Source of the DNA: Syntrophaceae bacterium UBA6112
GTDB lineage: Bacteria > Desulfobacterota > Syntrophia > Syntrophales > UBA5619
Reading direction: 5' to 3'
NCBI GenBank assembly: GCA_002423465.1
Contig: DIWG01000018.1
Span: forward strand, 12,323 to 76,322
DNA length: 64,000 bases
Part shown: positions 12,532-37,521 of the stretch, in pieces
How the letters are laid out: every line of letters starts with the position of its first letter
Numbering within the stretch: the stretch's first letter is position 1
Position numbers and translations under genes: made by a program
Notes under the pieces: model-generated
Databases searched by the model: none
Seen by the model: the letters and a program-made list of their open reading frames with translations, nothing else
Told to the model about the DNA's origin: nothing

Positions 12532-13767
12532 TCATTTCAGGGTCGTCTTTTCCGCCTCAAATACGAGACAGGCATACGTTCCTCCGAAGGAGATCCCGCT
12601 CAGGAGCGCTTTGTTGACGGGCCGGTGAAGGGTCTCCCCGATTACGAACGGGAGGGGACAGAGGGGCGCCGTCAAGCCCGCGACCGGCGGTACGACCCCT
12701 TCCCGGACCGACAGGGCCAGCGCTGCGGCCCGAATCCCGCCGGAGGCGAAGATCTCCCCCGTCGCCCCCTTGAGGGATGTGATCAGCGGGCTCCCGTCAC
12801 CCCCGCCGAAATGTTGTTCAACCGCCGCCGCCTCGACGGCGTCGAGCCGGAGCCCGCCGTTTCCGGCAGCCTGGATGCAATCGATCTCCGACGGTTTCGC
12901 TCCGGCCATCCGGAGGGCGCGTCCCAGGGCCAGCATGAATCCACGGGGATCGTCGGGCCATTCCGTCTGCGGCAAGGGAGAGGAAGCCAGCCCCCAGCCC
13001 GAAATTTCACAATAACATTTCGCCCTGCGCTCCCGGGCGAGATCCTCCGCCTCCAGACAGACGATCCCGCACCCCTCCCCCATGACGGCGCCGTTGCGGG
13101 CGAGATCGAACGGCCGGGCGCCTTCCGGGCCGCCATCCGTCGGGGAGAGGGAATGGAAACGTCCGAGGGCTTCGTAGAAGAAGGGCGACAGGATGTCCGC
13201 CCCGCCGGCCAGGATCACGTCCGCCGTGCCGCGCCGGATCTCCATCGCGGCGTAGGCAATGGCCGTCTCGGCGGAGACGGCTTGATGGTTGACCGTCGTA
13301 TTCACCCCGCGGAATCCCAGTTCGATAGAGGCGTGACCGGCAGGGGCATTCATCACCGTATTGGGGACATGGATCGGGTTGACCATGCCGGGACCTTCCG
13401 TAAACAGGATCCGGGCGCTTTGGACCTTCTGCTCCGTGTTCCCGAAGGCCGTCCCCATGATGATCCCGATCCGGTCCCGATTCGTCTCCGTAACGGCAAT
13501 CCCGGCGTCGTCCAGGGCCATCCGGACGGAGGCCGTCGTCATGGCGGACAGGCGATCCATCTTCCTTAGATTTTTCAGAGAAATGAAATCGCGGGGCTGA
13601 AAATCCCGAATCTCCGCCCCCAGGTGCGATCCGAAATCTTCGGTCGGGAAGGAAACGATCTCCCGGATGCCCGTCCCGCCGCGGCAGAGGGCATCCCAAA
13701 ACCTCTCCTTCCCCACGCCCAGAGGCGTGACCATCCCCATCCCGGTAACGACGACCCGTCTATCCAC
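12532..13767 (-). CDS. Ketosynthase-family protein lacking the Cys-His-His triad (chain-length-factor-like KS partner)
   Basis: Full-length KS fold. The catalytic positions read GVNTTVNHQAVSAETAI (no Cys), IQAAGNGGLRLD (no His) and KGATGEIFASGG (no His). An 8-nt overlap with the upstream catalytic KS suggests translational coupling. Confidence 0.85.
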   Translation of the reverse strand: MDRRVVVTGMGMVTPLGVGKERFWDALCRGGTGIREIVSFPTEDFGSHLGAEIRDFQPRDFISLKNLRKMDRLSAMTTASVRMALDDAGIAVTETNRDRIGIIMGTAFGNTEQKVQSARILFTEGPGMVNPIHVPNTVMNAPAGHASIELGFRGVNTTVNHQAVSAETAIAYAAMEIRRGTADVILAGGADILSPFFYEALGRFHSLSPTDGGPEGARPFDLARNGAVMGEGCGIVCLEAEDLARERRAKCYCEISGWGLASSPLPQTEWPDDPRGFMLALGRALRMAGAKPSEIDCIQAAGNGGLRLDAVEAAAVEQHFGGGDGSPLITSLKGATGEIFASGGIRAAALALSVREGVVPPVAGLTAPLCPLPFVIGETLHRPVNKALLSGISFGGTYACLVFEAEKTTLK

Positions 13768-15019
13768 GCCGTCCTCCCTCTTCCCGGAAACGGCCGAAAA
13801 TCACCGTCGTGTTGTTCCCGCCAAAGGCGAACGAGTTGGAGAGAACGACGTCCGGCGCGATGGGCCGGGCGCCTGTCGTTACATAATCCAGATCGCACTC
13901 CGGATCCGGCGTCTCGCGGTGGATCGTGGGTGGGATGAAGCCCTCCGTGATGGCGAGGACGGAGACAACCGCCTCCAGCGCCCCGGAGGCGCCGAGGGTG
14001 TGGCCGTGCATCGACTTCGTCGAGCTGACGGGGATCCGCCCGGCCCGCGGGCCGAAAACCTCCTTGATCGCCCGCGTCTCCATGAGGTCATTGGGCGGCG
14101 TCGCCGTGCCGTGGGCGTTGATGTAATCGACCGCCTCCGGCCCAAGATTCGCGTCCCTGAGGGCCGCCTGCATCGCCCGAATCGCCCCGGAGGCGCCGAC
14201 GTCCGGCGCGGTCATGTGGTGGGAATCGCAGGTGACGCCGTAGCCCAGCACCTCGGCCAGAATCCGCGCCCCCCTTTGCTTCGCGTCCGCAAGGGATTCC
14301 AGGATCAGGATTCCCGCCGCCTCGCCGAGGGTGAGACCGGCGCGGTTTCCGGAAAAGGGCCGGCAGTATTCGGGATCGACGGCCTTCAGGGCATTGAATG
14401 AAGCAAAGGTCATCCGGCAGAGGGGTTCCGTACCGCCGGCGATCATCGCCCGGGCAGCGCCGCTGCGGATCAGGTCCCTCCCCAGGCCGACGGCCGTCGC
14501 CCCGGAGGAACAGGCCGTCATGAGGGTGATTTTCGGTCCCATGAGGTTGAATCTCGTGACCAGATGATTGGCCGTCGAGGCGCAGCATACCGGTGAGAGT
14601 CGGGAAAAACGGGCGCTCCGTCCCCCCTTCCGGAGATAATCCCGGAAGAAGGCTTCCGCCTCCAGCAGGCCCCCGGCCCCGCCGCCGATGACGACGCCCA
14701 TCTCCTCCCGCAGCGTCTCCGGAACGGGATCAAGCCCCGCCTGGGCGAGGGCCTGGAAGGTCGCCGTCAAGGCCAGCAGGTCCGAACGGGACATCCGCTT
14801 CCGGGATATGCCGCGGGGGATCCCATCCCGGGGACGAAAGTCCTTGACCTGGGCGCCGTTATGGGTGCGGAATCCATCGGTATCAAAGAGGGTGATCGGC
14901 CCGATGCCGCACACCCCGTTGCGCAGCGCGACGGTGAACTCCCCGGGATCGCCCGCAACGGCGTTAACCGTCCCCAGGCCCGTGATCACCACCCTTTTTT
15001 CGTCAGTCCCGATTGCCAT
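13760..15019 (-). CDS. Beta-ketoacyl-ACP synthase (FabF-like, catalytic)
   Basis: LMTACSSGATAVG, INAHGTATPPND and SMHGHTLGASGA give an intact Cys-His-His triad. The ATG at 15019 (MAIGTDEKRVVITGLG) is preferred over the track start at 15058. Confidence 0.85.
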   Translation of the reverse strand: MAIGTDEKRVVITGLGTVNAVAGDPGEFTVALRNGVCGIGPITLFDTDGFRTHNGAQVKDFRPRDGIPRGISRKRMSRSDLLALTATFQALAQAGLDPVPETLREEMGVVIGGGAGGLLEAEAFFRDYLRKGGRSARFSRLSPVCCASTANHLVTRFNLMGPKITLMTACSSGATAVGLGRDLIRSGAARAMIAGGTEPLCRMTFASFNALKAVDPEYCRPFSGNRAGLTLGEAAGILILESLADAKQRGARILAEVLGYGVTCDSHHMTAPDVGASGAIRAMQAALRDANLGPEAVDYINAHGTATPPNDLMETRAIKEVFGPRAGRIPVSSTKSMHGHTLGASGALEAVVSVLAITEGFIPPTIHRETPDPECDLDYVTTGARPIAPDVVLSNSFAFGGNNTTVIFGRFREEGGRRG

Positions 15020-15093
15020 GAACGATTCCTGTCGCCGCTCTTTTCGAATCGAAGCCACACTCTACCGTCACGCTGAAAAAAGTCAATTCCTTC

Positions 15094-15867
15094 TTATCCC
15101 CCGGCCAGACGTTTCCGATAGAGCCCCCGGATTTCATGGATGAGAGTGGAGAGGCGGAAGGCGGGATCGCCGTAGTCGGGATCAAAAGCGCCGATCCTCT
15201 CCACGTCGATCGTGACGGGGACGCAGGTGTTGAACCGGAAGCGTCCCGGCACAAACAAACGGCCCGTGTCGCGGATCAGCAGACATTGAATCGGCGCGCG
15301 GCAGTACCGGGCGATGCTGAAGGCGCCCTTGTTGAACGGCCCGAGCCGGCCGGAACGGCTTCGGGTCCCCTCGGGAAAGATAAAGACATTGCCGCCTGAT
15401 GCAAGATATTCCCCGATATTTTCAATGTTTTGAATCATCTGCGACGCATCACCGTCTCCCGCCTGTGAGGGGATGTAACCGGATTGCCGCAAGATCCTGC
15501 CAAAGACAGGCACGTTGAAAAAGGCGCTTTTGACGATCGTCTTCTGTTTCTCGAACAGGGAGATGAGGAGGATCGGATCGAGATAAGACAGGTGGTTGCA
15601 GACGATGATGGACGAGCGTATCGTCCTGACCTCATCGCGGATATTCAGAGTGACTCCAGGAGTGATGAGGCGGAGCAAACGGAAAAAACCGTGGAAAAAA
15701 CGCTGATTCAGGCGCTGGAAGGCAGCCTCCCGATCCGCGCGCCGGAGCAGGACCATCGCATAGCGGGGGGAAAACAAAAGGAAGAATCCAAATGTGAAAT
15801 AGCCCCAGAGCAGGAGCGTCACGACAACATCCAGCAGCGGTTTGAATGGTTTGGCGGGGAAGAACAT
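15094..15867 (-). CDS. Lysophospholipid acyltransferase (PlsC/LPLAT family, 1-acyl-sn-glycerol-3-phosphate acyltransferase-like)
   Basis: HX4D motif VCNHLSYLDPI and FPEGTRSRSG, with an N-terminal TM segment. The ATG at 15867 leaves an 8-nt gap to the upstream KS. The track start at 15993 would overlap that KS. Confidence 0.8.
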   Translation of the reverse strand: MFFPAKPFKPLLDVVVTLLLWGYFTFGFFLLFSPRYAMVLLRRADREAAFQRLNQRFFHGFFRLLRLITPGVTLNIRDEVRTIRSSIIVCNHLSYLDPILLISLFEKQKTIVKSAFFNVPVFGRILRQSGYIPSQAGDGDASQMIQNIENIGEYLASGGNVFIFPEGTRSRSGRLGPFNKGAFSIARYCRAPIQCLLIRDTGRLFVPGRFRFNTCVPVTIDVERIGAFDPDYGDPAFRLSTLIHEIRGLYRKRLAGG

Positions 15868-15875
15868 GGCGGATT

Positions 15876-17114
15876 TCAAACAAACCTCTTGATCAGCAGG
15901 TTCGTATTGACGCCGCCGAAGGCAAAGTTCTGGATGCCCGCAATATGGATCGGCTGTTCCCGCAGATGCATGGTATGGCGGATCATGGCACACCGCTCGT
16001 CGGGTTCTTCCAGATTGAGCGTCGGAGCGATAAATCCATCATGCATCATGTAGAGGGTCAGGATAGTTTCGATGGCGCCGCACGAACCCATCGTATGCCC
16101 CATGTATCCCTTGAGCCCGGTCACGAAGGGACCCTCTCCGTAAACGGCATGGATGGCCTGGGCTTCGATCACATCACCCATCTTGGTTCCTGTGGCGTGG
16201 GCGCTGACGAAGTCAACCTCATCGGCCGTTAGGGCCGCGTCATCGAGGCCGATACGCAGGGTTTCGCTGATTCCGGCGCGATTCGGCAGGATGAGATCGC
16301 CCCCGTTGTTGTTACAGGCAAAACCGACGACCTCGCCCAGAATGGCGGCCCCGCGCTTCCTCGCATGTTCGTATTCTTCCAGCAGCACCGCTCCGGCGCC
16401 CTCTCCGACGACCAGCCCGTCGCGTTGCCGGTCGAACGGCCGCGGCGTGCATTGAGGCCGGTCGTTGAAGGCCGTTGAACAGGCCAGCAGATTGTCGAAG
16501 ACGGCCACGGTGGTCGTATCGTACTCATCCGCCCCGCCGCACAGCATCGCATCCTGCATGCCGAATTTGACCGCCTCGTAGCCGAAGCCGATGGATTGGC
16601 TGCTGGTCGTGCAGGCCGTGGAGGAGGAGATGACCCGGCCGGTGATGCCGAACATCTTCGTGATGTTCACCGCCGTCGTATGGACCATGGACTTGAGGTA
16701 ATCGACGGCGCCGATGGCGCGAAATTCGGTTTGGGAAGCGCCGAAAAAGGTTTTGTAGATCTCCCTCTGGATGGTGGGACTGCCGTGGGTGGAGCCGAAA
16801 GCGACGCCCAGGCGGCCGGAGGTCACGAATTCCGGCGGCAGGCCGGCCTGCTCGAGAACCTCCTTGGCCACCTGGCAGGCGTAATACGCGACAGGCCCCA
16901 TGGTCTTCCGGTAAAGTCTCCGGAAGTCGAAGACAGGCGGATTTTCCACCGTCCCGAAGACCTGGGAATGGATGAATTTCGACAGGAGGTGATCCTCCCG
17001 GAGCGGTTTGACGCCGGAGACGCCCCGTTGCAGGCTGTCCACGATCTCCGCCCGCGTATGGCCGATGGGCGTGACGGCCGAACAAGCCGTGATGACGACT
17101 CTTCTTCCCTTCAT
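15876..17114 (-). CDS. Beta-ketoacyl-ACP synthase (catalytic)
   Basis: SSSTACTTSSQSIG, VSAHATGTKMGD and GYMGHTMGSCGAIE. Confidence 0.9.
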   Translation of the reverse strand: MKGRRVVITACSAVTPIGHTRAEIVDSLQRGVSGVKPLREDHLLSKFIHSQVFGTVENPPVFDFRRLYRKTMGPVAYYACQVAKEVLEQAGLPPEFVTSGRLGVAFGSTHGSPTIQREIYKTFFGASQTEFRAIGAVDYLKSMVHTTAVNITKMFGITGRVISSSTACTTSSQSIGFGYEAVKFGMQDAMLCGGADEYDTTTVAVFDNLLACSTAFNDRPQCTPRPFDRQRDGLVVGEGAGAVLLEEYEHARKRGAAILGEVVGFACNNNGGDLILPNRAGISETLRIGLDDAALTADEVDFVSAHATGTKMGDVIEAQAIHAVYGEGPFVTGLKGYMGHTMGSCGAIETILTLYMMHDGFIAPTLNLEEPDERCAMIRHTMHLREQPIHIAGIQNFAFGGVNTNLLIKRFV

Positions 17115-17159: not shown

Positions 17160-17429
17160 CTAAGCATGCGCTCCCCCCTCCCTTACCCGGACCAACCCCT
17201 CGACATAGTCAACGATCTGGTTGATGGTCCGGATCCCCATCGCCGATTTCTTCTCGTCGTGGGTCAACTCGGACTTCAGAAACCGTTCGATCCCGATGAG
17301 CAGTTCGATTGCGTCCACACTGTCGAACTCGTAGGTTTCGCGCAGGTCGTCATCCAGGCCGGGATGTTCGATCTCGAATTCACTCCTGAAAATAGTGAGG
17401 ATTTCCGTGGTGATCTCTTCTCTTGTCAT
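17160..17429 (-). CDS. Acyl carrier protein
   Basis: Phosphopantetheine attachment motif YEFDSVDAIELLIGIE. The start at M11 (17429) is preferred because of the upstream GGGAAG. Confidence 0.8.
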   Translation of the reverse strand: MTREEITTEILTIFRSEFEIEHPGLDDDLRETYEFDSVDAIELLIGIERFLKSELTHDEKKSAMGIRTINQIVDYVEGLVRVREGGAHA

Positions 17430-17508
17430 CGTCTTCCCATCTTTACGGTCCATTTGCATGATCGGGTTTGTGAAGGATTATAATGATTTCCTGGATGGAT
17501 GGCAAGCC

Positions 17509-19002
17509 CTACTTGCTTGACTTGCCCTTTCCGGCAAAGAGCCCTGCAAAGACCCTGCGGTCAAAAGACTCGTGGCCCATGATCTGTCGCACGGTCTGGA
17601 AAGAACCCAGAACAGTCCCCACGATTCCCGGCGCCAGCGCGTTCTGGCCGGCGAAGAAGAGTCCGTCCAGCGGCAAGCGGTGGAGCGCGGCGGCGGCCGG
17701 CAACTGGCCCACCGACCGCATGATGCCGTATGGCGAACCCTCCGGACTGTTCACCCAGTCCCGGAGCGTCAGGGGGGTATAGGCGTCGATGATCTTCCCG
17801 TCCGCCAACGACCCGAAAATTTCCTCGGCTTTTCCGAGCATGCCTTCCGCCCGGCGGATCTTTTCCTTCTCGTATTCCACGCCGCGCCGGCCCGTCGTCG
17901 TATCCTCCCACCGGCGCCACTCGGAAAAAGGGCTTCGGGTGATCATCATCAGGAGGTTTCTCCCCTCGCCGCCGGCACGCAATTGATAGAACAAACCGGC
18001 GGAAATCCATCCCTCCCGGTCCGTCTGCAAGCGGTAGATATTGTGCGGCAGGGCGGGATGGGTCCGGGCGTCCACGGAGACATTCGCCGCGAACAGGCCT
18101 TCCGTCTCGACAAGGCCGCGAATCCGTCTTGCCTGACGGGGTTTGACGGCCCCCTCCGGCAGCATCGCCAGAACCGTCTTGGGATGAACGGCGGCCACAA
18201 CCCGGGTTCCCCGGAGCACCCTTCCGGAGGCGAGCCTCACCCCGGCAACCTCCCGACCATCGATCAGAATCGCCGCCGCCGCATCGTTGCAGAGGAGGCT
18301 GCCGCCAAGCCCCGTAAATCGTGAGCTGAACGCCTCCGCCAGATCCGTCCCGCCCCCCCGCAAACGCCAGGCGGAGAGAAGATAGGAAGTCAGCGCCAGA
18401 TGGTGGTAGATCACGGGGCAATCCTGTTCCGAAAGCCCCATCCATCTCGAAGCGACGCAAAGAACGCTCCGCAGTCGGGGGGAACAGTTCAGCTTTGCCA
18501 GATAGACCGCGAGCGGCGAGAAAAGATCCATGTCGAAGAGAGGGGGCATCGCCGAAGAGAGGAAAGAGAGGGAATTCTGCAGATCGGCTACGGCGCGGAG
18601 ATTTCCGATGATCGCCGCAATCGGCCGGCGATCATCCGGGAATGCCGCTTCCAGCGCATCGGCCAATGCATCGATCCCTTCCGGCAGGTCGAACGCAAAA
18701 TCATCGAAAAGATATCGGTCGATGGGGCCGCCCCCCCCCATCCGCTCCGCCGCCACTTCGACGCCCATAAAATCGAACATCCTCCGGAGAGGCTGACCCT
18801 CCCCGAAGGCGCCGAAATAATGAACACCGACGGGACAGTCGACGCCGTCCCGGGTATAACTGCGCATCAGACCGCCCGGCAGGGTGTTCCGCTCGATGAC
18901 GGCCACGCGCGGGTATAATCGGGCCAGGATGATCCCGACCGAGAGTCCCCCGACTCCGGAACCGATGATCAACGCATCAAAAGGCTGCTCTGTTGCCATC
19001 AA
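17509..19002 (-). CDS. FAD-dependent oxidoreductase of the phytoene desaturase (CrtI) family
   Basis: N-terminal dinucleotide fold DALIIGSGVGGLSVGIILAR..VAVIERN. The length and C-terminal GLFFAGQNALAPGIVG motif are typical of CrtI-like amine oxidase-fold enzymes. Confidence 0.85.
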   Translation of the reverse strand: MMATEQPFDALIIGSGVGGLSVGIILARLYPRVAVIERNTLPGGLMRSYTRDGVDCPVGVHYFGAFGEGQPLRRMFDFMGVEVAAERMGGGGPIDRYLFDDFAFDLPEGIDALADALEAAFPDDRRPIAAIIGNLRAVADLQNSLSFLSSAMPPLFDMDLFSPLAVYLAKLNCSPRLRSVLCVASRWMGLSEQDCPVIYHHLALTSYLLSAWRLRGGGTDLAEAFSSRFTGLGGSLLCNDAAAAILIDGREVAGVRLASGRVLRGTRVVAAVHPKTVLAMLPEGAVKPRQARRIRGLVETEGLFAANVSVDARTHPALPHNIYRLQTDREGWISAGLFYQLRAGGEGRNLLMMITRSPFSEWRRWEDTTTGRRGVEYEKEKIRRAEGMLGKAEEIFGSLADGKIIDAYTPLTLRDWVNSPEGSPYGIMRSVGQLPAAAALHRLPLDGLFFAGQNALAPGIVGTVLGSFQTVRQIMGHESFDRRVFAGLFAGKGKSSK

Positions 19003-19077: not shown

Positions 19078-19335
19078 TTATTTTAAGCGGTTTTTTTCGA
19101 CGAATTCGGCCAGGGCGCGGACGGAGGCAAAGGCTTGGACGCCCATGTCCTTGCTTTCGATCTTGACGCCGTAATCCTTCTCCAGCATGAGGACCAGTTC
19201 CAAAACGTCGATGGAATCGATCCCCAGATCCCCCCCGACGAGTCGGTCATCGTCGCCGATATCCTCCGGGACGACATCCAGGAGGGACAGGGTATCGATG
19301 ATCTTGACTTTCAGTTCCGCGATAAGCGCTTCCAT
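19078..19335 (-). CDS. Acyl carrier protein
   Basis: DLGIDSIDVLELVLMLEKDYG, 85 aa and acidic. Confidence 0.85.
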   Translation of the reverse strand: MEALIAELKVKIIDTLSLLDVVPEDIGDDDRLVGGDLGIDSIDVLELVLMLEKDYGVKIESKDMGVQAFASVRALAEFVEKNRLK

Positions 19336-19454: not shown

Positions 19455-19871
19455 TCAGGTATCCTCTTCCGGGCGAAAAACCTGGATGCTGACGACGGCC
19501 ACGACATCCGACCCCAGGCGTACCGTTCCTTCGAAGACGGCATAGCCTTCCAGGGCGTAACCCCTCCGGGCCTCGGTGATCAACGTGGCAGACAGGGGAA
19601 TGCGCGGCAGACGGAAATCGGCCCTCTTGATTCCCACCAGCCAGCCCTTTGTCCCGCCCCGCTTGGATTGCTGCCGTTTCCACCCCTCGAGGAGCGCCGC
19701 CGTCTGGGCGACGAGTTCGATCGTCACCAGCGCATCGACGGCCCCGTCGTGGAACAGCGGCCAATCCTCCGTAACGACGGATGAGGCCATCGCCTTGTCG
19801 TTATCGACGGCCAGCGCCTCGTTGATCAGCCGCATCTTCTCCCGGTGGGGAATCAGGGCTTCAATGTCCAT
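19455..19871 (-). CDS. Hot-dog fold 3-hydroxyacyl-ACP dehydratase-like protein
   Basis: IPHREKMRLINE near the N-terminus and a single hot-dog length (138 aa), similar in style to the stand-alone dehydratases of aryl-polyene/FAS-like clusters. AAGGAAGGG RBS. Confidence 0.7.
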   Translation of the reverse strand: MDIEALIPHREKMRLINEALAVDNDKAMASSVVTEDWPLFHDGAVDALVTIELVAQTAALLEGWKRQQSKRGGTKGWLVGIKRADFRLPRIPLSATLITEARRGYALEGYAVFEGTVRLGSDVVAVVSIQVFRPEEDT

Positions 19872-20193
19872 GTCATCCCTTCCTTGCTTTTCTCATAACA
19901 GAAATCCGCCACGGCGGCAAGGACGTTCGATCGATCCCCCATTCCGACGACCGCCCTCCGGCTGAACATTGAACGGAAGAGATTATCCAGACCGCTTTTG
20001 GGAACGCGACATCCGGTTTTTTCGCGGCATCAACTTTTCAAACGAGCCCGCCTTTCCATGGTCTTTGAATTGTCTTGACACAAAGCCACCCTTTTCCATA
20101 CACTCACTCCGGCTGAAAACATCCTTATCCCAGCGGAATGGCGAATATGAAACCGATCCCGTTCCCCTTATTACACCGGCAAGTAAACATATC

Positions 20194-20298
20194 AAAGTTT
20201 GTCATGCCGGACTTGATCCGGCATCCAGCCCTGTCTTGGATTCCCGCTTCCGCGGGAATGACAGGAACAGCATTTATGGTTGCCGGAGTAATAAAAGG
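20194..20298 (+). repeat. Structured intergenic repeat family 1, copy 1 (~105 nt)
   Basis: aaagtttgtcatgccggacttgatccggcatccagccctgtcttggattcccgcttccgcgggaatgacagg...gttgccggagtaataaaagg. It contains two hairpins (gccgga-cttgat-ccggc and attcccgc-ttcc-gcgggaat). A second direct copy lies at 21442-21549. Confidence 0.75.
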
Positions 20299-20322
20299 AA
20301 TGCCCAAGGAAGAACGAATCCA

Positions 20323-29910: not shown

Positions 29911-30368
29911 AACTGCACGGTCTTGGGATCGACGGCCACCGGAATGCCTCGGGCGTTCAGCGCGCAGTGAAGCGTGAATCCACGGCAGACGTCGGCCCCC
30001 GTCTCCGCATGGGTGATGATGTAGTCGAAACGGAGCCTCACCCGTTCGAGCTCGGCCGGACGGGTGTGGATCCACATTGGATCGTCATAGCGCAGGGGCT
30101 CCTGGAACCGGATGCCCATCTCGACAATCGGATAGACATAGCCGTCGGCCTCGATCTCGCGGTAGGGGTAGGCGGCATCTCGCATCAGGGATGCCCGGCC
30201 GAGTTCAAAATACCTTAGATAATTTGCATGATAGACGACGGAGGAGCGGTCCGTATCGGCATAAAGCGTCCGGTTTCCACAACGATGCCAGACCAGTCCC
30301 GTTTTTGCATCGCGGACATAAGGCCCCTTCTCGCCATAGGCTTCCGGCCGGAATGGTTTCGGTTTCAT
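29886..30368 (-). CDS. Hot-dog fold acyl-CoA/acyl-ACP thioesterase (4HBT/YbgC-like)
   Basis: YADTDRSSVVYHANYLRYFELGR is the catalytic Asp context of 4HBT-type thioesterases. The ATG at 30368 lies 1 nt after the upstream KS stop. Confidence 0.8.
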   Translation of the reverse strand: MKPKPFRPEAYGEKGPYVRDAKTGLVWHRCGNRTLYADTDRSSVVYHANYLRYFELGRASLMRDAAYPYREIEADGYVYPIVEMGIRFQEPLRYDDPMWIHTRPAELERVRLRFDYIITHAETGADVCRGFTLHCALNARGIPVAVDPKTVQLWKTFPNP

Positions 30369-30369
30369 C

Positions 30370-31635
30370 TCAAACACCCCGGAAAATGATGCAGCAGTTC
30401 GTCCCCCCAAAGCCGAAGGCGTTGGAAAGGGCCAGTTCATGAGGCTGCCGTCGGGCCTTATCGGGCACGCAGTCGATGTCGTCGAAACGGGGATCGGGCC
30501 GGTGGTTGATCGTCGGCAGGAGGATTCCCCGCCGCATCCCCTCGATGGTCAGTGCCCCCTCGATGGCTGCCGCCGCGCCGAGGGTATGGCCGATCTGGGA
30601 TTTGTTGGACGAAAGGGGGATCTTCTCCAGCGCCTTCCCGAAGGCAGCCCGTAGACAGTCGATCTCGGCCAGATCGCCCTTCTGCGTGGAGGTGCCGTGT
30701 GTGTTGATGTACCCGATGTCCGCGGGCTTGAACCCCGCGTCGGCGATCGCCTCCCGGATCGCCCGGATGATCGTTTCGCGGTTCGGGCTGGTGAAATGAT
30801 GGGCGTCGGAGGTCCAGCCGACGCCCATGATCTCGGCCCGCGCCGTCAGCCCGTGGCGGGCGATCATCTCCTCGGCTGCCAGCACGATGACGCCCGCCCC
30901 TTCGGAGAGGACGAAGCCGCGCCGGTCGTCGCTGAACGGGCGGGAGGCCTTTGCGGGATCCGTAAAGGCGCGATCCCCCGGAAGGACCTTGATGGTCGCG
31001 TTCATGTTGTTGAAGCCGTGAATGATCTCCGGCAGGATCGGGGTGTCCACCCCCCCGGCCAAGACGAAATCGCAATCCCCGTCCCGGATCATCCGGGACC
31101 CGATGCCAATCGCGTGGTTACCGGAGGCGCAGGCCCCCTGCGGGGAAAAGACCGGTCCGGTGAAACCCAGCAGCATCCCCGCCTTCCCCGAGGGGAGATT
31201 GGCGCACAGGTTCGGCAGCAGGTAGGGGCTAATCTTCAGCGGGCCCTTTTCCTGAAAATTCAGCATCGCCGTCCGGAAGGCGTCGACCCCGTTGATGGCC
31301 GAACCGATCAGACAGGCGGTCCGGGGGGCGGTTTCTTTGTTCATCGGCAGACCGGCATGGGCCAGCGCCTCGCGGCAGACCGCCATCGTGAGGATGACAA
31401 AGCCGGCGTTCCAGTTGTACGCCTCCTTCTCGTCGACAAAATCAAGCGCCCGGGAATTCCAGTCCGGGATCTCCCCGACCACATCACAGGCAGAGTCGAC
31501 CGCACAGCGGGTAACCTTCCGGAAGCCCGCCTCGCCACGGACGGCCCGTTCCCATGTTTCGGCAAAGGTCCGCCCCAGCGGGGTGGCCGCCCCGTAGCCG
31601 ATCACGAAAACCTTTCTGTTCTGTGGCGCCCTCAT
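30370..31635 (-). CDS. Beta-ketoacyl-ACP synthase (catalytic)
   Basis: SPQGACASGNHAIG, INTHGTSTQKGD and SQIGHTLGAAAAIE. Confidence 0.9.
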   Translation of the reverse strand: MRAPQNRKVFVIGYGAATPLGRTFAETWERAVRGEAGFRKVTRCAVDSACDVVGEIPDWNSRALDFVDEKEAYNWNAGFVILTMAVCREALAHAGLPMNKETAPRTACLIGSAINGVDAFRTAMLNFQEKGPLKISPYLLPNLCANLPSGKAGMLLGFTGPVFSPQGACASGNHAIGIGSRMIRDGDCDFVLAGGVDTPILPEIIHGFNNMNATIKVLPGDRAFTDPAKASRPFSDDRRGFVLSEGAGVIVLAAEEMIARHGLTARAEIMGVGWTSDAHHFTSPNRETIIRAIREAIADAGFKPADIGYINTHGTSTQKGDLAEIDCLRAAFGKALEKIPLSSNKSQIGHTLGAAAAIEGALTIEGMRRGILLPTINHRPDPRFDDIDCVPDKARRQPHELALSNAFGFGGTNCCIIFRGV

Positions 31636-31750: not shown

Positions 31751-33001
31751 TCAGGCCACGCGCCGAAACACAAGGCACGCATTGCACCCCCCGAAACCGA
31801 AGGCGTTCTTCAGGACAAACTCCTGATCCAGGGTTCGGGCGCCTTCCGCCACGCAATCCAGCGGAATCTCCGGGTCCGGCCGGAGGTTGATCGTCGGCAG
31901 CAGCACCCCCCGGCGCATCCCCTCCATCGCCAGGATGGACTCGACGGCGCTCGAGGCCCCCATCGCATGGCCGATTTGCGACTTGCCGGCCGAAACGGGG
32001 GGAACGGAGGCGCCGAAGACCTCCCTGAGAACGTCCGCCTCAACACGATCCCCGATTTTGGTCGAGGCGGCGTGGGCGTTGACCGCATCGATGTCGGCGG
32101 GACCGATGCCGGCATGGCGGATGGTTTCCTCCATACACCTGCGAACCGTCACGGGGTTGGGGGCCACGACGTGATGCGCGTCTGCGGTCATCCCCCAGCC
32201 GGCCAGCTCGGTCTCATGGGCCAGACCGTGCGCCGCGGCAAACTCACGCGAAGCGATGACGATGCAGCCGGCCCCCTCGGAAACGACGAAGCCGCGCCGG
32301 GACAGGGAAAAGGGACAGCTCGCGGCCTGCGGCGGAAGGGATTCCTCCCCCTCTTTGGGACGGTACGCCCCGTTCATCGTCGCAAATCCGGCCACGATCG
32401 GCTCCACGAGGGGAAAGTCCACGGCCCCGCAGACGGCCACGTCGGCCATTCCCTGGGCGATGAACATCGCCCCGAGGATCAGCGAACTGCTCCCGGTGGC
32501 GCAGGCGGTGACGCCGGAGGAGATCGGTCCGGTCGCCCCGGTCGCGATGGCAACCTTGCCGCCCACCATGTTGATGCAGGAATTGGGATTCATGAACGGC
32601 TGGGGAAGTTTTCCCGTCGCCACCAGCGTCCGATCCGCGTCAATCAGCGCGTCCAGCCCGCCGATGGCGGAGCTGAACGTCACGGCCACGCGGGGGGCCA
32701 GCTCCGGCGTGATCTCGATCCCGGCCCGCGCAAGGGCGCGCATGACCACGAGCAGGGCGTGCTTGAAAACGGGAGAGGTCCAGTGGGCCATCTCGCGGGG
32801 CCGGAGAAAAGGATAAGGGCCGGGATCAATATTGGGAACCTGACCGGCGATCCGGACCGGAAATCCCTTGCGAAGGGGGAAGCGGGTCAACGCGGATACG
32901 CCGCTCTCTCCCGCCGCTGCCCGGCGCCACTGTCCTTCCAACTCCGTCCCCAGCGGCGAGACACAGTCATATCCGAGGATTACGGGCCGGGTCCTGTTCA
33001 T
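31751..33001 (-). CDS. Beta-ketoacyl-ACP synthase (catalytic)
   Basis: SGVTACATGSSSLI, VNAHAASTKIGD and SQIGHAMGASSAVE. Confidence 0.9.
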   Translation of the reverse strand: MNRTRPVILGYDCVSPLGTELEGQWRRAAAGESGVSALTRFPLRKGFPVRIAGQVPNIDPGPYPFLRPREMAHWTSPVFKHALLVVMRALARAGIEITPELAPRVAVTFSSAIGGLDALIDADRTLVATGKLPQPFMNPNSCINMVGGKVAIATGATGPISSGVTACATGSSSLILGAMFIAQGMADVAVCGAVDFPLVEPIVAGFATMNGAYRPKEGEESLPPQAASCPFSLSRRGFVVSEGAGCIVIASREFAAAHGLAHETELAGWGMTADAHHVVAPNPVTVRRCMEETIRHAGIGPADIDAVNAHAASTKIGDRVEADVLREVFGASVPPVSAGKSQIGHAMGASSAVESILAMEGMRRGVLLPTINLRPDPEIPLDCVAEGARTLDQEFVLKNAFGFGGCNACLVFRRVA

Positions 33002-33037: not shown

Positions 33038-34063
33038 CTACCAGGGGATGAACCGGTAGAGCTTGGCGAACATCTCATAGACCTCGATCCAGTTCTGGAG
33101 ATCCTTCGCCGACCGCATGTGCGCCCTTTTGTTCACCATCACCCAACTCATGTGGGCGGCGCCGTCCTTGCAGGTCGTGCAGTCGCGGGTGGCCGACGTA
33201 CAGCAGCGGTGCATCGTCTTTAAGTCGGCCGCCCAGCGGATGAACCGGATGAGCCGTTTGGGGCGGGGGTGGCGATTATCCAGCGGTTCCGTCACGGAGG
33301 GGCATTCATTCCACGAAAAGGGTCTTCCCAGCATCCGGCCGGTCGTGATGATCTCGTGGTAATACCGGCAGGAGATGACGGTCCCGGGGTAGCGCTCCAG
33401 CATGGCGTCCATCTCGGCGCGGATGTCCGAAAGCTGGGGGGGCGTCCAGGAAAAACCGTCCACGCCCTCGTCGTTGGACAGGAGCTGCATATGGACCTTG
33501 AGCCCGGCATCGGCGATCCTCCGGATCACGCGTTCCGTCCGTCCGAGCTGACGGGAGGTGATGGTGTAAAGGTAATAGGCGTCCGGATCGCCGGTATAAT
33601 TCCGGCTGGAGACGGCGAAGGCGTCTTTCCCCCGCAGAAGCCTCTCATCCTCTTCATCACCCCACAGGGAGATGCCCACCATCATCCCGGGAAATCGATC
33701 GCGGGGAATTTTGATCAAGCCGTTGGTGGCGCAATAGGTGGGAAGACGTTTGTAGAAGGCTTCGACACGATCGAGATAGAGGGTCGGTTCACCTCCGATA
33801 AGGATGGCCAGGTTGACCCCGCGCGCCTGTTCCCGTTCCACGAAAGACTCCCACCGGACCACATCCTCCTCTTCCGGGGCGGCCTTGTGTTCATCGGAGG
33901 AAAAGAAAAAACACCCCTTGCAACGCAGGTTGCACCGGTTCGTGACATCGTAGATGGAACTTCGGATATTCAGGCGGGAAATCGCCTTGTAGCGCTCATA
34001 CCAGTTTTGATCCAACAGTGTGCTAACGGTCTTCATCGTTATCTCTTCCCGATTTCTTCGCAC
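33038..34063 (-). CDS. Radical SAM protein (paralog A of a tandem pair)
   Basis: NRCNLRCKGCFFF (CxxxCxxC) near the N-terminus and C-terminal Cys motif HRCCTSATRDCTTC. It aligns along its length with the next gene. Confidence 0.85.
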   Translation of the reverse strand: MRRNREEITMKTVSTLLDQNWYERYKAISRLNIRSSIYDVTNRCNLRCKGCFFFSSDEHKAAPEEEDVVRWESFVEREQARGVNLAILIGGEPTLYLDRVEAFYKRLPTYCATNGLIKIPRDRFPGMMVGISLWGDEEDERLLRGKDAFAVSSRNYTGDPDAYYLYTITSRQLGRTERVIRRIADAGLKVHMQLLSNDEGVDGFSWTPPQLSDIRAEMDAMLERYPGTVISCRYYHEIITTGRMLGRPFSWNECPSVTEPLDNRHPRPKRLIRFIRWAADLKTMHRCCTSATRDCTTCKDGAAHMSWVMVNKRAHMRSAKDLQNWIEVYEMFAKLYRFIPW

Positions 34064-35184
34064 CCCGGGGGGGAAACCATTTCCGCACAGAGATTCTTCC
34101 CCTTTTCGTATCCCATGACCCAGACGGCAAGATAGGTATCAACGTAGTCCAGCCAGGACCGGAAGGTCTCCGGATCAGTGACATGCCGGTAAAGCCGGGC
34201 GGTCACCACGGCGCTTCCCGCCGCATAATGCCGGCAGTCGCTGCAATCCGTATCGGGCACGCAGCAGGCCGCGTCCCGGTCCCAGGTGAGATCGGTCCGG
34301 AACTGGCGGAAGGAGCGGCCCAGTCCGATATCCGTGGAGGGATTCCTCCGGGGATAGGAACAGCGATACAGATCATGAAGACCCCGTTCATGCGTATGGG
34401 CAACGACACTGTAAGGAGAGAAGAGGACATGCCGGGGATGCCGGGACATCATCTCCCGCATCACTTCCCGGGTACGGGTCAGGGAGGCCCCGTCGTGTCG
34501 CAACGGCCCCGCGTAACCGACCGGCGAGGAAAAGACGTTGAAGGTGATCCGGCAGTCGGCCGCCGCCAGCACGTCCACAACGCCGGCCGCTTCATCGATG
34601 TTTTCGCGCGTGAAGGTATAGACGAACACGGCCCGAGGATCGTCACGGTAGTTTTTGATCTGGCGGACCAGCAGTTCCGGAGCCTTGCGCACACGGAGGC
34701 TGGTTGCGTCATTCCCCCAGACGGAAATATGGATCTTGTAACCGATTGCCGGATCGATGCGACGGACACCGTTGGTGGCGATACAGCCCAGGGGCATCTC
34801 GGCAAAACAAACTTCCAGAAGCCCGGGAACCAGGGAGGGTTCGGCACCCGCCAGGACGACATAGGTGATGCCGCGTTCCCCCTCTGCGCGCATCAGCGCC
34901 CGCCAAGCCTCGGGGTTTCCGTTTTCCCCGGCAAACTGTTTTTCCCCCTCGTAATAATAACAGCCGTCGCAGTGCAGGTTGCAGCGGTTGCTCATGTCAT
35001 AGGTGGATTCCCGGAGAAAAAAGTATTTTCGGACCTTTTCCCAGCGGGCCCGCACCTCCGGACCCGCCAGCAGTTCGGAAAATTTCCATCGCCGCCGGTC
35101 CTTTTCACATCTTGCGCCAAACGGCGCTGCACACCGTCCCGTTGCTGCCTTCTCCGTCACGGCCGGATTCACACCATCCCGCAT
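34039..35184 (-). CDS. Radical SAM protein (paralog B of a tandem pair)
   Basis: NRCNLHCDGCYYY and C-terminal AACCVPDTDCSDC. 25-nt overlap with paralog A. The N-terminal start is uncertain. Confidence 0.8.
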   Translation of the reverse strand: MRDGVNPAVTEKAATGRCAAPFGARCEKDRRRWKFSELLAGPEVRARWEKVRKYFFLRESTYDMSNRCNLHCDGCYYYEGEKQFAGENGNPEAWRALMRAEGERGITYVVLAGAEPSLVPGLLEVCFAEMPLGCIATNGVRRIDPAIGYKIHISVWGNDATSLRVRKAPELLVRQIKNYRDDPRAVFVYTFTRENIDEAAGVVDVLAAADCRITFNVFSSPVGYAGPLRHDGASLTRTREVMREMMSRHPRHVLFSPYSVVAHTHERGLHDLYRCSYPRRNPSTDIGLGRSFRQFRTDLTWDRDAACCVPDTDCSDCRHYAAGSAVVTARLYRHVTDPETFRSWLDYVDTYLAVWVMGYEKGKNLCAEMVSPPGCEEIGKR

Positions 35185-35227: not shown

Positions 35228-35515
35228 TCACAAGGAATCGTTAGCCTTTTGTCCATGCAGGCGGGACTGTACATACTCGGCGATCAGCCGGACGGTTTTT
35301 AATTTCGGATAATCATCCTCGTCGATGAAGACGCCGTATTCGTCCTGCAAAACCAACGCCACGGTGGCCAAATCCATGCTGTCCACTCCAAGTTCGTCCA
35401 CCAGATCCATGTCGGGATTGAACGACTCCGGCGTGATCTCTTCCAGCTTCAGTTCCTCAATAATGATCTCGGCAATCCGGATGATCCGTTCACGGGTCTC
35501 TTTACTCTCCGGCAT
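35228..35515 (-). CDS. Acyl carrier protein
   Basis: ELGVDSMDLATVALVLQDEYG. GAGGGAGG RBS precedes the ATG at 35515. Confidence 0.85.
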   Translation of the reverse strand: MPESKETRERIIRIAEIIIEELKLEEITPESFNPDMDLVDELGVDSMDLATVALVLQDEYGVFIDEDDYPKLKTVRLIAEYVQSRLHGQKANDSL

Positions 35516-35618: not shown

Positions 35619-35999
35619 TTATAATGATGATGAAACGATTGCCGCCGTCAAGACACCGCTGCAGGCCACTTCGCCGGCAAGACGGAGGGTGAAAGCGTAG
35701 GTCGGCCCTTCCCGGCCGGACATCCGGGTCGCCTCCAGGGTCACCTCATCGTCCGGCCTGACGGGCAGACGAAACCGGATCCTGCGGACCCCCGTGATCA
35801 CCAGGGTTCGGCCTTCGCCGCGTTCCCGTTCAATAACGGCTTCCTCCACGAGGGCAATCAGCGCCACCCCCGGCACGATCGGATTGCCCGGGAAATGACC
35901 GGAAAACCAGTCAGAATTTCGCGGAAATCGCGCCGCCGCCGCGACACGCTCCCCCCTCCCCGACAACTGCAGCCATTCATAACCGAACCGCGCGGTCAT
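35619..35999 (-). CDS. FabZ/FabA-like hot-dog dehydratase
   Basis: SGHFPGNPIVPGVALIALVEE matches the FabZ active-site His context HFPxxPxxPGV. Confidence 0.8.
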   Translation of the reverse strand: MTARFGYEWLQLSGRGERVAAAARFPRNSDWFSGHFPGNPIVPGVALIALVEEAVIERERGEGRTLVITGVRRIRFRLPVRPDDEVTLEATRMSGREGPTYAFTLRLAGEVACSGVLTAAIVSSSL

Positions 36000-36171
36000 G
36001 TCTTTCTCCGTTCATCGAACTTACGATTGCAAATCCCCATCACTGCCGATCTGCGAAAACCAACGGTGATGCCGGGATGCGTTTTCACTACCGTCCGCGA
36101 AACACCGTGTCAAGAAAAATCACGGCGATGCACCTGTCGCAAGCGGTTCATTCCGGTCGGCGAGCCGCAGT

Positions 36172-37521
36172 TCAGCGAAGCAGCAGCTCCCACAGAGGAC
36201 CGGGGCGACCGCGGGCATGCATCCGGGTCACGACCCGCTCCGTCTCTTCCCCGCCGTCCCCATAGACCCAGTTCACCCGGCCGCGCGCCTGGCTCTTGAC
36301 CCGGTCGATAATCGCTTCCGTTGTGATGCCGTTCGATCGATAGAAAACCGGCGAGAGCAGGTCCTGGTCCGGCCTGATCTGCCCCTCTTCCATGGCAAGG
36401 TCATAGAGCGGGGTATGCGGAAAGATCCGGACGCCGCACAGCAGAAAGAATGCCGCCTTTCCCAGCGCCTCCATACGGTTCATGGTTTCGTCCAGGCTGC
36501 GGGCGTCTTCTCCCGGCCCTCCCAGCAGGAAATAGTGGGCAATGTTCACCCCCGAGCGGCGGGCGCTCCCGTGGGCGGCAAAGACATCCTCCACATCGAA
36601 CGGCTTTCCGTACCGCATCAACTGAGGATCGCAAAGGGATTCCGTCCCAAACTCGGCATGGGTCAATCCGGCCTCGGCGAGGATGCCGTAATAGCCGTCG
36701 GGCGGGCGCGTCGGGGCAAGAAAAGCCCCCCAGGGAATGGTGAGGCCCCGGCGGCGAAAGGCTCTGGCGACGGCCAGGCTGTGGTCGACATCGGCATTGA
36801 ACGCGGAATCCGTGATGAAGAGGAACCTGGCGCCCATCTCCTGAAGTTCCCGGGCCTCCCGGGCAACCTCATCGGGAGGGACCAACCGCATTCGGCGCCC
36901 CTCGATATGGGGATAGGTGCAGTAGATGCAGCGGAAGGGGCATCCCCTTTTTGTCTGCAGGTTCAGGATCCCCCCCCGTTCGAGGTAGAAACGACGGTGG
37001 GCGTCCGCCGGCCGCATCCGCCTGGCGACGACACCCGTCCAAGGGACCGGATCCCGGATGGGTCCTCCCCGAATCACGATCCCGGGCAGAGCGGAAGGAT
37101 CGTCTCCCCTTTCGAGGGCATCCAGAAGGGGAGCCATATATTCCCCTTCCCCGACAACACCGAAATCGGCGCCCAGCAGAGACATCAATTCGCCGGGGAA
37201 AATGGAAAAACCGCTGCCGCCCAGTACAATCGGGACCCCGGTGCAACACCTGATGAGCCGGACCATCCTTTCATATCCCGGAACGAAACTTTTCACGGCC
37301 AGGGTGTCCACGTTGTCGATATTCCGGAGGGATATGCCGATCACCTCCGGGTTGATATCCCTCAGGTCGGTCTTGATCCGCTCCATCCCCCCCGCCACAT
37401 TCACGTCCAGAATTTGGACTTCATGCCGGGGCGTCAGGGCTCCGATGAGATAATCGAGGCCCAGGGGATAGACGGGATGCGGGGCGCGGGTCATATTGGC
37501 GGAAATAAGAAGAACTTTCAT
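36172..37521 (-). CDS. B12-binding domain radical SAM protein
   Basis: MKVLLISANMTRAPHPVYPLGLDYLIGAL (cobalamin-binding-like N-domain) and TKRGCPFRCIYC. GGTGGAG RBS precedes the ATG at 37521. The track start at 37638 adds an Arg/Gly-rich extension. Confidence 0.9.
   Translation of the reverse strand: MKVLLISANMTRAPHPVYPLGLDYLIGALTPRHEVQILDVNVAGGMERIKTDLRDINPEVIGISLRNIDNVDTLAVKSFVPGYERMVRLIRCCTGVPIVLGGSGFSIFPGELMSLLGADFGVVGEGEYMAPLLDALERGDDPSALPGIVIRGGPIRDPVPWTGVVARRMRPADAHRRFYLERGGILNLQTKRGCPFRCIYCTYPHIEGRRMRLVPPDEVAREARELQEMGARFLFITDSAFNADVDHSLAVARAFRRRGLTIPWGAFLAPTRPPDGYYGILAEAGLTHAEFGTESLCDPQLMRYGKPFDVEDVFAAHGSARRSGVNIAHYFLLGGPGEDARSLDETMNRMEALGKAAFFLLCGVRIFPHTPLYDLAMEEGQIRPDQDLLSPVFYRSNGITTEAIIDRVKSQARGRVNWVYGDGGEETERVVTRMHARGRPGPLWELLLR

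Follow-up and report, generated by a model that had tools for sequence, protein, structure and literature searches.

How ladderanes are made, and what the look-alike gene clusters of non-anammox anaerobes produce, are questions that have been standing since 2009. A cluster of this kind lies on the metagenomic contig DIWG01000018.1 (assembly GCA_002423465.1) of the Syntrophaceae bacterium UBA6112, in the 64,000 nucleotides from position 12,323 to 76,322 that were analysed here as a whole and are called the window in the following. A sequence-only reading had described it as a dedicated pathway rich in radical S-adenosylmethionine (SAM) enzymes that loads a modified acyl chain onto glycerol-3-phosphate (G3P). 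What would this locus make? It is a non-anammox member of the broad family of ladderane-type clusters that join fatty acid synthase (FAS) and radical SAM genes, a family already recognised, with an uncharacterised product. We consider it likely that the genes form a dedicated line similar to type II FAS or polyketide synthases (PKS), working on its own acyl carrier proteins (ACPs), and that a chain tailored by radical chemistry is delivered to a specialised membrane lipid, probably not a ladderane. The locus is placed in the ladderane-type family, and not among ladderane producers, because one radical SAM enzyme passes the family model TIGR04072 but the FAS-like parts are not specifically anammox-like.

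Gene content of the two blocks

Open reading frame (ORF) calling by coding signature, combined with Pfam and NCBIfam, resolved two minus-strand gene blocks, A (12532-19871) and B (27009-37521). In total they encode five FabF-like ketosynthases (KSs), three ACPs and three dehydratases. Of the four radical SAM enzymes two are B12-dependent and the other two are tandem paralogs, and the 4HBT thioesterase, CrtI-like flavoenzyme, PlsY paralog and PlsC-like acyltransferase are each encoded once. Every gene call of the sequence-only reading was confirmed by the two profile collections. In the order of transcription the genes are:

Block A
A1, 19455..19871, minus strand: ApeP-like single-hotdog dehydratase, first gene of the block (Pfam ApeP-like 27.9 bits, cut-off 27)
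A2, 19078..19335, minus strand: ApeE-type ACP with DS motif (PP-binding; PRK09184 65.8 bits, cut-off 70)
A3, 17509..19002, minus strand: flavoenzyme of the CrtI/phytoene-desaturase family (NAD_binding_8 and Amino_oxidase; crtI_fam 59 bits, well under its cut-off)
A4, 17160..17459, minus strand: third ACP, weakly ApeF-like (PP-binding 26.4 bits; FDSVD motif)
A5, 15876..17114, minus strand: KS of the PRK09116/ApeR type, triad intact (PRK09116 397.6 bits, cut-off 470; best PDB matches 4ewg and 7f27)
A6, 15094..15993, minus strand: PlsC-family (lysophospholipid) acyltransferase, ApeD-like (Pfam Acyltransferase 86.3 bits; motifs HLSYLD (HX4D) and FPEGTR); translation probably begins at the ATG at 15867
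A7, 13760..15058, minus strand: FabF-like KS, triad intact (fabF 414.7 bits, cut-off 493.75)
A8, 12532..13767, minus strand: triad-less KS homologue resembling a chain-length factor (CLF), overlapping A7 by 8 nt

Block B
B1, 36172..37521, minus strand: B12-binding radical SAM enzyme, first gene of the block, TIGR04072 (rSAM_ladder_B12, 'lipid biosynthesis B12-binding/radical SAM protein')
B2, 35619..35999, minus strand: FabZ-like single-hotdog dehydratase, weakly ApeI-like, with the FabZ motif GHFPGNPIVPGV (Pfam FabA 34 bits; ApeI-like 20.7 bits, cut-off 28.5)
B3, 35228..35515, minus strand: ACP of the conserved core (PP-binding 40.3 bits; GVDSMD motif)
B4, 34039..35184, minus strand: radical SAM enzyme with C-terminal Cys cluster, first of the tandem paralogs (motifs CNLHCDGC and ACCVPDTDCSDC)
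B5, 33038..34036, minus strand: radical SAM enzyme, second of the tandem pair and most conserved protein of the cluster (motifs CNLRCKGC and RCCTSATRDCTTC)
B6, 31751..33001, minus strand: FabF-like KS, Cys-His-His intact (fabF 324.6 bits, under the cut-off of 493.75)
B7, 30370..31635, minus strand: FabF-like KS, triad intact, 42% identity to B6
B8, 29886..30368, minus strand: 4HBT or YbgC-FadM-type thioesterase, ApeK-like (Pfam 4HBT_2; TIGR00051 77.2 bits, above the cut-off of 68.7)
B9, 29032..29910, minus strand: double-hotdog protein resembling PKS-type dehydratases (PKS_DH_N 26.7 bits, borderline to the cut-off of 27; motifs DHHIGDRIVLP (HHxGxxxxxP) and DAAMH (DxxxH); no NCBIfam match)
B10, 28449..29030, minus strand: PlsY paralog, acyl-phosphate:G3P acyltransferase family (Pfam G3P_acyltransf 124.5 bits; TIGR00023 106.5 bits, under the cut-off of 137.2)
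B11, 27009..28445, minus strand: second B12-binding radical SAM enzyme, generic class B, last gene of the block

The active sites of the ketosynthases were read by alignment to E. coli FabF. As claimed before, four of them keep the Cys-His-His triad and one lacks it: A8 has Ala, Ala and Glu at these positions. A7 would be the catalytic partner in a KS/CLF-like pair with A8, and orthologous A7-A8 pairs are found in two relatives, L070 and L078, with 64-65% and 55-56% identity. The motif CxxxCxxC is present in all four radical SAM proteins. B1, which starts with the ATG at 37519-37521, combines the Pfam domains B12-binding and Radical_SAM and carries the motif CPFRCIYC. For B11, HpnJ (181.7 bits) and BchE (169.7 bits) are matched in NCBIfam, each far under its cut-off, and among the best 80 related loci its orthologues (64-72% identity) occur only in the close relatives L006, L025 and L063.

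The packing with overlaps or gaps of 0-10 nt that the sequence-only reading had described applies to the runs B7 to B11 (1, -25, 1 and 3 nt), B4/B5 (2 nt) and A7/A8; elsewhere in both blocks the genes are separated by 35-172 nt. Three independent assemblies show the identical arrangement, which speaks against an artefact of assembly. In the whole 64-kb window neither the Rfam nor the tRNA scan gave a match, so that no cobalamin or SAM riboswitch is present in it, and a promoter/terminator scan gave nothing informative.

FabG, FabD, FabH, FabI, PlsX and phosphopantetheinyl transferase (PPTase) domains were found by Pfam in none of the coding-like ORFs of the 64 kb. Six-frame tblastn with E. coli PlsX, FabH, FabD and FabG, with ApeQ and with the FabG of related loci gave no match in the window either; for FabI and PPTase the statement comes from Pfam alone. 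The earlier remark that these functions are not encoded in the window was thus correct. With regard to the ketoreductase (KR), however, the lack is particular to this window: 26 related loci encode a FabG-type reductase that is ApeQ-like (44% identity to ApeQ).

Conservation of the core and its radical SAM pair

To place the locus among its relatives, genomes were scanned at one per species, where at least 551 stretches encode a relative of B1; all window proteins were compared by tblastn with the best 80 of these (numbered in the manner of L001). The closest match of B1 is in a Syntrophaceae metagenome-assembled genome (MAG; 92% identity), and further close matches are named Syntrophales, Syntrophus, Thermodesulfobacteriota or 'Deltaproteobacteria'. 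Among the best matches listed, the B1 homologues have a length of ~449 aa throughout, and the best 120 homologues of B1 and of B5 belong without exception to Thermodesulfobacteriota or Spirochaetota. Their JGI label, 'YgiQ (UPF0313 family)', is misleading. The best 80 loci belong to Syntrophales/Smithella, Desulfobacterales, Desulfobulbales, Desulfatiglandales, Spirochaetota and Leptospirales.

The recurrent order in the relatives is A2 (ACP), A7-like KS, B1, [deacetylase], B2, B3, B4, B5, B6, B7, B8, B9, [B10], with the A2 counterpart directly upstream of B1. Most of the 80 loci with enough sequence keep this core order, and the neighbourhood on which the sequence-only reading had staked its proposal is therefore clearly co-conserved. 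Counted only among relatives with enough sequence at the respective position, B2 is present in 58/72, B3 in 54/69, B4 in 49/67, B5 in 42/59, B6 in 41/55 and B7 in 33/50. The recurrence of this order in dozens of genomes, which belong to several orders and two phyla, shows that the gene set is not a chance grouping. Blocks A and B are contiguous in three Syntrophales MAGs (L041, L056 and L082), in the order A2-A7-A3-B1-...-B8-A4-A5-A6, with the A3 counterpart placed between a KS and B1.

Median identities to the relatives are highest for B5 (77%), followed by B4 (71%), B7 (70%), B8 (68%), B6 (66%) and A2 (62%), and lower for B1 (52%), B2 (37%) and B9 (35%). The values for B3 range from 60 to 87% and those for B9 from 31 to 54%. 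In Desulfobulbales relatives the arrangement B3-B4-B5-B6-B7 is kept at 68-79% identity.

B4 and B5 are paralogs (27% identity, E = 1e-30), and both end in CCx6DCxxC. The best 120 homologues of B5, which include proteins from Spirochaetota and Desulfosarcina, are all 332 aa long and at least 80% identical. A comparison with 1.84 billion representatives at 50% identity returned a single full-length cluster (77%), with the next relatives at 40% or less and only 38 representatives at E < 1e-30. B4 and B5 thus form an isolated radical SAM family that is almost invariant across two phyla. In the PDB, their profile finds SkfB as the nearest structure (E = 7e-9), followed by CteB, GDGT-MAS and PqqE, all of them auxiliary-cluster enzymes with cross-linking activity, one of which joins lipid chains. 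Similar to SkfB, CteB, PqqE and GDGT-MAS (Tes), B4 and B5 combine CxxxCxxC with a Cys-rich motif at the C-terminus, but the similarity is mainly limited to the N-terminal core (38.6 bits to SkfB) and CCx6DCxxC differs from the canonical SPASM motif. Whereas those enzymes act on peptides or isoprenoid lipids, the context of B4 and B5 consists of ACP and KS genes.

More distant relatives of the pair (L086, L087 and L084) always adjoin carrier-protein lipid or polyketide genes. In L086 the run is KS, KS, B4-like, B5-like, ACP, KS. L087 (JGI 3300079385, GC content 70%) has a B5 relative of 37% identity beside a Pfa-type polyunsaturated fatty acid (PUFA) synthase with PfaA-, PfaC- and PfaD-like genes; an AMP-ligase-ACP-KS protein, two cyclopropane-fatty-acid-synthase (CMAS)-like methyltransferases, DUF1365 and an amine oxidase are also encoded there. 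This is one more lipid cluster, apparently undescribed, with a member of the radical SAM family of B4 and B5. In a Blastocatellia MAG (GCA_035275065.1, L084/L085) a B5 relative of 40% identity shares its operon with genes for one PaaA/PaaC-like protein, a carrier protein, SnoaL_2 and an AMP-binding enzyme, and nearby there is a gene for an AurF-like oxygenase. A link of the B5 family to membrane-spanning lipids by way of Blastocatellia was considered and found unsupported, the context there being PaaA-like, AMP-ligase, SnoaL and carrier protein genes.

The leftover ORFs of the related loci were clustered and scanned with Pfam. Besides the FabG-type reductase, they comprise:

DUF3261, 22 related loci
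LolA-like protein, 19 related loci
flavin-reductase-rubredoxin fusion, 14 related loci
FabA, 10 related loci
MMPL-like transporter, 7 related loci
LpxL-type acyltransferase, 6 related loci
GT25-like glycosyltransferase, 6 related loci
additional B12-radical SAM enzyme, 6 related loci

Loci of the Desulfobacterales type have a glycosyltransferase and MMPL after the core and a divergent A1-FabG-LolA-DUF3261 operon before it, and in loci of the Smithella/Syntrophales type the core ends in PlsY. Different modules for lipid anchoring or export are thus joined to one and the same core, from which we argue that the product is an acyl chain for a membrane lipid. In Smithella-type relatives (L015, L020, L022-L024, L039, L053, L080 and others) the cluster is flanked by the flavin-reductase-rubredoxin fusion and a bona fide FabA, which immediately precede the ACP-B1 genes. 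Electrons for the radical SAM enzymes might come from the fusion, and cis-unsaturated intermediates from FabA.

In the window itself, the conserved genes are interrupted and accompanied by the following features:

19969..26695, no strand assigned: insertion with two Tdh-like medium-chain dehydrogenase/reductase (MDR) genes (the first on the plus strand), a transglutaminase-like gene, a thiamine pyrophosphate (TPP) enzyme and two hypotheticals
37889..40711, no strand assigned: low-GC island between U4 and B1 (42% GC against ~60%), with the next three genes
37889-38659: hypothetical
38669-39499: transposase-like gene of the insertion sequence (IS) family IS1 (E = 1.5e-14)
39656-40711: P63C-domain gene
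U4, 41095..42003, minus strand: membrane-anchored NodB-type polysaccharide-deacetylase homologue (Pfam Polysacc_deac_1 112 bits)

The sequence-only reading had treated 12532-37521 as one cluster. This range stands for blocks A and B, but it includes the unrelated genes at 19969-26695 and omits the deacetylase U4. By tblastn the genes of this 6.7-kb stretch are without homologues in the 80 related loci, and they are therefore taken as a lineage-specific insertion outside the conserved cluster. With 437 bits to 'acetolactate synthase PRK05858' and 351 bits to 2-hydroxyacyl-CoA lyase, the TPP enzyme resembles both of these. We had considered the MDR dehydrogenases and the TPP enzyme as the missing reductases and dropped them as conserved parts, no relative among the 80 having them; a lineage-specific role of the insertion genes in acyl-chain processing (alpha-oxidation, reduction) is conceivable. 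A secreted protein with a weak MAM-like match is encoded in the insertion as well.

Among 35 full-length relatives, 18 have a homologue of U4 (39-59% identity) placed between B1 and B2. In the relatives the deacetylase gene adjoins B1; here the island separates the two. Judged by this synteny, U4 probably belongs to the conserved neighbourhood and was displaced upstream by the IS-bearing island. The functional neighbourhood therefore reaches past 12532-37521, because the homologues of U4 sit inside the cluster in relatives.

According to Pfam, both blocks are flanked by housekeeping genes (FeoAB, malic enzyme, Tol-Pal, EF-P, SelB, RuvX and others). At 55236-58393 the EF-P gene and a lysine-2,3-aminomutase-like (EpmB-like) radical SAM gene adjoin a gene of the baeRF family ('bacterial archaeo-eukaryotic release factor'). 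SelB, the selenocysteine elongation factor, and FdhD are encoded at 58978-62852, which means that the organism uses selenoproteins. A YgiQ-type radical SAM gene (Radical_SAM_N and DUF3362; 5459-7285), upstream of an amidohydrolase gene, is unrelated to the cluster.

Known systems and rival explanations

A tie to candidate ladderane clusters had been suggested in the sequence-only reading. It is borne out by B1, which reaches 381.1 bits against TIGR04072 in NCBIfam (curated cut-off 360) and covers model positions 1-442 of 443, and by the work of Rattray et al. in 2009, where such clusters are described (PMC2649909). In Kuenenia stuttgartiensis these are kuste3603-3608 (Cluster I) and kuste3335-3352, which hold SAM-radical enzymes, phytoene-dehydrogenase-like proteins, three ACPs, the deacetylase-like gene Kuste3351 and many FabF paralogs, some of them without active-site residues; striking synteny with them was reported for Desulfotalea psychrophila, Geobacter and Pelobacter (PMC2649909). 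The antiSMASH class 'ladderane', available since version 3, is based on that study (PMC4489286), and Desulfobacterota as well as other phyla are reported to carry and express biosynthetic gene clusters (BGCs) of this class, without an assigned function (PMC9902471).

With the published loci the window shares the TIGR04072 enzyme, divergent FabF paralogs of which one is triad-less, dedicated ACP genes, a dehydratase similar to FabZ, a phytoene-desaturase-like flavoenzyme and a polysaccharide-deacetylase-like gene. In its arrangement the run B3-B4-B5-B6-B7, where two non-B12 radical SAM genes in tandem adjoin an ACP and FabF paralogs, resembles the published descriptions of Kuste3343/3342 and DP1855/1853. 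Like the window, these loci occur in strict anaerobes. In contrast to them, the cluster in the window is split in two by the insertion and adds PlsY and a second B12-radical SAM enzyme at the end of the operon, whereas the SAM-dependent methyltransferase (Kuste3347 type), the acyl-CoA ligase and the Mmp-like membrane protein of the published loci were not seen in the window. A parallel also exists for A7 and A8. The anammox proteins FabF2 and FabFmut form a KS/CLF-like heterodimer that decarboxylates malonyl-ACP (bioRxiv 10.64898/2026.05.19.726425). By its predicted active sites A7/A8 would be a comparable KS/CLF-like pair, with the gene order reversed: the mutant KS gene lies upstream of the active one in anammox bacteria, while A8 lies downstream of A7.

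A second relationship leads to aryl polyenes (APEs). Proteins of the ape cluster of E. coli CFT073 (apeA-R; protein roles from PMC8253772) were compared with the window proteins. Identities are 46% for A2 and ApeE across the full length, 40% for A5 and ApeR, 36-37% for A7 and ApeR or ApeO, 32% for B8 and ApeK, 29% for A6 and ApeD, 28% for B2 and ApeI, 26% for A1 and ApeP, and 25% for A4 and ApeF. The best PDB match of A2 is 9ls6_A (E = 5e-11), six orders of magnitude ahead of other ACP structures. Both systems also have a KS with a triad-less KS partner and lack an enoyl reductase (ER). The likeness to APE and type II PKS systems noted in the sequence-only reading is therefore real, and it invites the idea that the product is a pigment lipid with an APE-type or another conjugated polyene, to which the radical SAM enzymes would contribute only minor tailoring. 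Eight parts homologous to ApeR, ApeE, ApeF, ApeD, ApeK, ApeP, ApeI and ApeO, dehydratases present without ER, and ApeQ-, ApeL-, ApeM- and ApeN-like genes in the relatives, whose LolA- and MMPL-like proteins match ApeL and ApeM, are in accordance with it. Still, we regard this explanation as unlikely. By six-frame tblastn, the window has no match at E < 1e-3 to ApeH, the ligase for the aryl (4-hydroxybenzoate) starter, or to ApeB, ApeG and ApeJ; Pfam finds no AMP-binding domain in any window ORF. Nor does the window encode a KR or, by the same six-frame search, the ApeL/ApeM/ApeN export module (LolA-like/MMPL/DUF3261), although relatives add ApeQ, ApeL, ApeM and ApeN homologues. ApeC, a CLF of 240 aa, has no detectable match to A8. 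APE clusters are without radical SAM enzymes, CrtI-like enzyme and PlsY, whereas the window has four of the first and both of the others, and the highest conservation is found in the radical SAM pair and its ACP and KS neighbours, not in the APE-like parts. By homology the chassis is APE-like, but the cluster lacks a defining APE feature, as it has no ApeH.

The same holds, with other details, for type II PKS. As in the KS-alpha/KS-beta pairs of actinorhodin and ishigamide (Iga11/Iga12), the gene of a catalytic KS is followed, in translational coupling (8-nt overlap), by that of a triad-less homologue, and A7 scores 260 bits to Iga11 (6kxd). However, aromatic PKS CLFs typically have Gln where A8 has Ala, cyclases or aromatases are not present in the window, and A7 and A8 are closer to FabF than to the actinorhodin KS/CLF.

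Methylation by the B12-radical SAM enzymes, yielding mid-chain methyl-branched fatty acids such as have been reported from sulfate reducers and anammox bacteria, is less probable again, and we think it quite doubtful. The nearest characterised relatives of B1 are indeed C-methyltransferases: among the other NCBIfam models BzaD reaches 168 bits and TsrM 125-152 bits (NCBIfam and PDB), and both are methylases. The nearest solved structures are TsrM, AprD4, OxsB and CysS. Most class-B enzymes methylate, and the carriers of the cluster overlap taxonomically with producers of 10-methyl fatty acids. But the class also includes the non-methylating AprD4, OxsB, BchE and HpnJ, and five KSs, three ACPs, three dehydratases and a non-B12 radical SAM pair exceed the need of such a modification.

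Rattray et al. proposed an oxygen-independent PUFA or hydrocarbon route for Desulfotalea psychrophila (C31:8, C31:9), a carrier of a syntenic cluster with polyunsaturated hydrocarbons (PMC2649909). The CrtI-like desaturase homologue and the dehydratases without ER would fit a route of this kind, though the CrtI-like gene is found in only ~4/35 relatives. In other bacteria, C31:9 hydrocarbons originate from Pfa-type synthases and OleABCD; Pfam detects no ole or pfa gene in the window, and four radical SAM enzymes would be left unexplained. We therefore rate this route as improbable.

True ladderane lipids with concatenated cyclobutanes, made outside anammox bacteria, are very improbable, in spite of the TIGR04072 member and the enzyme classes common to kuste3603-3608, kuste3335-3352 and the window. 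Desulfotalea carries a syntenic cluster and no ladderanes were detected in it (PMC2649909), and the literature ties ladderanes strictly to anammox bacteria (bioRxiv 10.64898/2026.05.19.726425, PMC9902471). The host is an uncultured Syntrophaceae-like bacterium (Thermodesulfobacteriota) and not an anammox planctomycete, and the closest relatives of the locus are Syntrophaceae. Closeness to anammox proteins was gauged indirectly, through PDB entries only, and in these comparisons B2, A7, A8 and the ACPs showed no special affinity to them. B2 is not of the amxFabZ type: canonical FabZ reaches 45 bits and the amxFabZ structures 8AYD, 8AYB, 8AYC and 7QV0 reach 23-30 bits. A7 and A8 score no better against the heteromeric KS entry 9s5h (with 9s5i, a putative amxFabF heterodimer) than against B. 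subtilis FabF.

A housekeeping locus for type II fatty acid and phospholipid synthesis, which the grouping of FabF-, ACP-, FabZ-, PlsY- and PlsC-like genes could suggest in an analysis covering a 64-kb window of the genome, is no more credible, since no part reaches its equivalog cut-off (best FabF 414.7 against 493.75 bits, ACP 38.5 against 70.45, FabZ 48.6 against 113, PlsY 106.5 against 137.2), FabD, FabG, FabH, PlsX and E. coli AcpP (six-frame tblastn, E < 1e-3) have no match in the window, five KSs and four radical SAM enzymes are superfluous for housekeeping, and published carriers have a separate canonical FAS II. With these scores and the synteny kept across orders, the view of a dedicated, non-housekeeping pathway is upheld.

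Proposed pathway and its significance

For the dedicated radical-tailored acyl line that we prefer, all steps were derived from homology and gene context. The APE-like chassis would build the acyl chain from malonyl units, with A5 working on the ACP A4, A7/A8 on A2, and B6/B7 on B3. For beta-keto reduction the line would depend on a reductase from another locus. Double bonds would be left in the chain by the dehydratases A1, B2 and B9, since no ER is supplied, and A3 may add or isomerise double bonds. With their auxiliary Fe-S motif, B4 and B5 could take hydrogen from the chain on its ACP and so create a C-C bond or another cross-link, and B1 and B11 could methylate or rearrange unactivated carbons. 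Finally, B8, B10 and A6 would release the finished chain and esterify it into a glycerolipid.

Several points weigh against this proposal. No product, transcript or enzymology is on record for this or any non-anammox homologue; our literature search for a characterised product of non-anammox clusters led to Rattray 2009 and metagenomic BGC surveys and no further. The chemistry of class-B radical SAM enzymes is too diverse for a prediction of the reaction. The AlphaFold2 model of B5, built on an alignment of 20 sequences that is shallow because the accessible homologues are all at least 80% identical, is unusable (mean predicted local distance difference test score 51.9). As KR, ER, malonyl transferase, PlsX and PPTase are not encoded in the window, the pathway has to rely on unlinked genes, and PlsY requires an acyl-phosphate for which the window shows no evident source. 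The locus may moreover be eroding or partly inactive, because the 6.7 kb of unrelated genes split its blocks and the IS island interrupts it upstream. The G3P acylation enzymes, to which the sequence-only reading had given a central place, are present as genes. They are, however, rare among the relatives, with PlsY at the B10 position in only ~15/46 and a PlsC-like gene in only ~6/35. As few relatives have them and many carry LolA, DUF3261, MMPL or glycosyltransferase genes instead, PlsY and PlsC are a lineage-specific accessory and not a defining trait.

A more specific version of the proposal is that the ACP, the tandem radical SAM pair, the KS pair, the thioesterase and B1 together form C-C bonds by radical chemistry, closing rings in, or cross-linking, an ACP-tethered unsaturated chain during elongation. 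We put this forward tentatively, as a possibility of rather low likelihood. A 2026 review names only ladderanes and jawsamycin as fatty-acyl lipids on which radical SAM enzymes are thought to act (PMC13459092). If radical C-C bond formation of this kind were true, Syntrophales, Desulfobacterales, Geobacter-type bacteria and some Spirochaetota would make undescribed carbocyclic or cross-linked fatty-acyl membrane lipids, and the pathway would be an evolutionary and mechanistic sister of ladderane synthesis, in cultivable and genetically tractable hosts.

The locus does not represent a new kind of system, but the comparison narrows the problem by separating a conserved core from interchangeable modules. 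The core comprises B3 to B8 and B1, with A2 directly upstream of B1 in the relatives; the modules are PlsY and PlsC here and LolA, DUF3261, MMPL and glycosyltransferase elsewhere. Added by this study are the APE-like ancestry of the chassis, the recognition of the middle genes as an insertion, and the deacetylase in the neighbourhood. The core genes, B4 and B5 foremost, are prime targets for experiments in cultivable carriers, and the results would bear on the biosynthesis of ladderanes.

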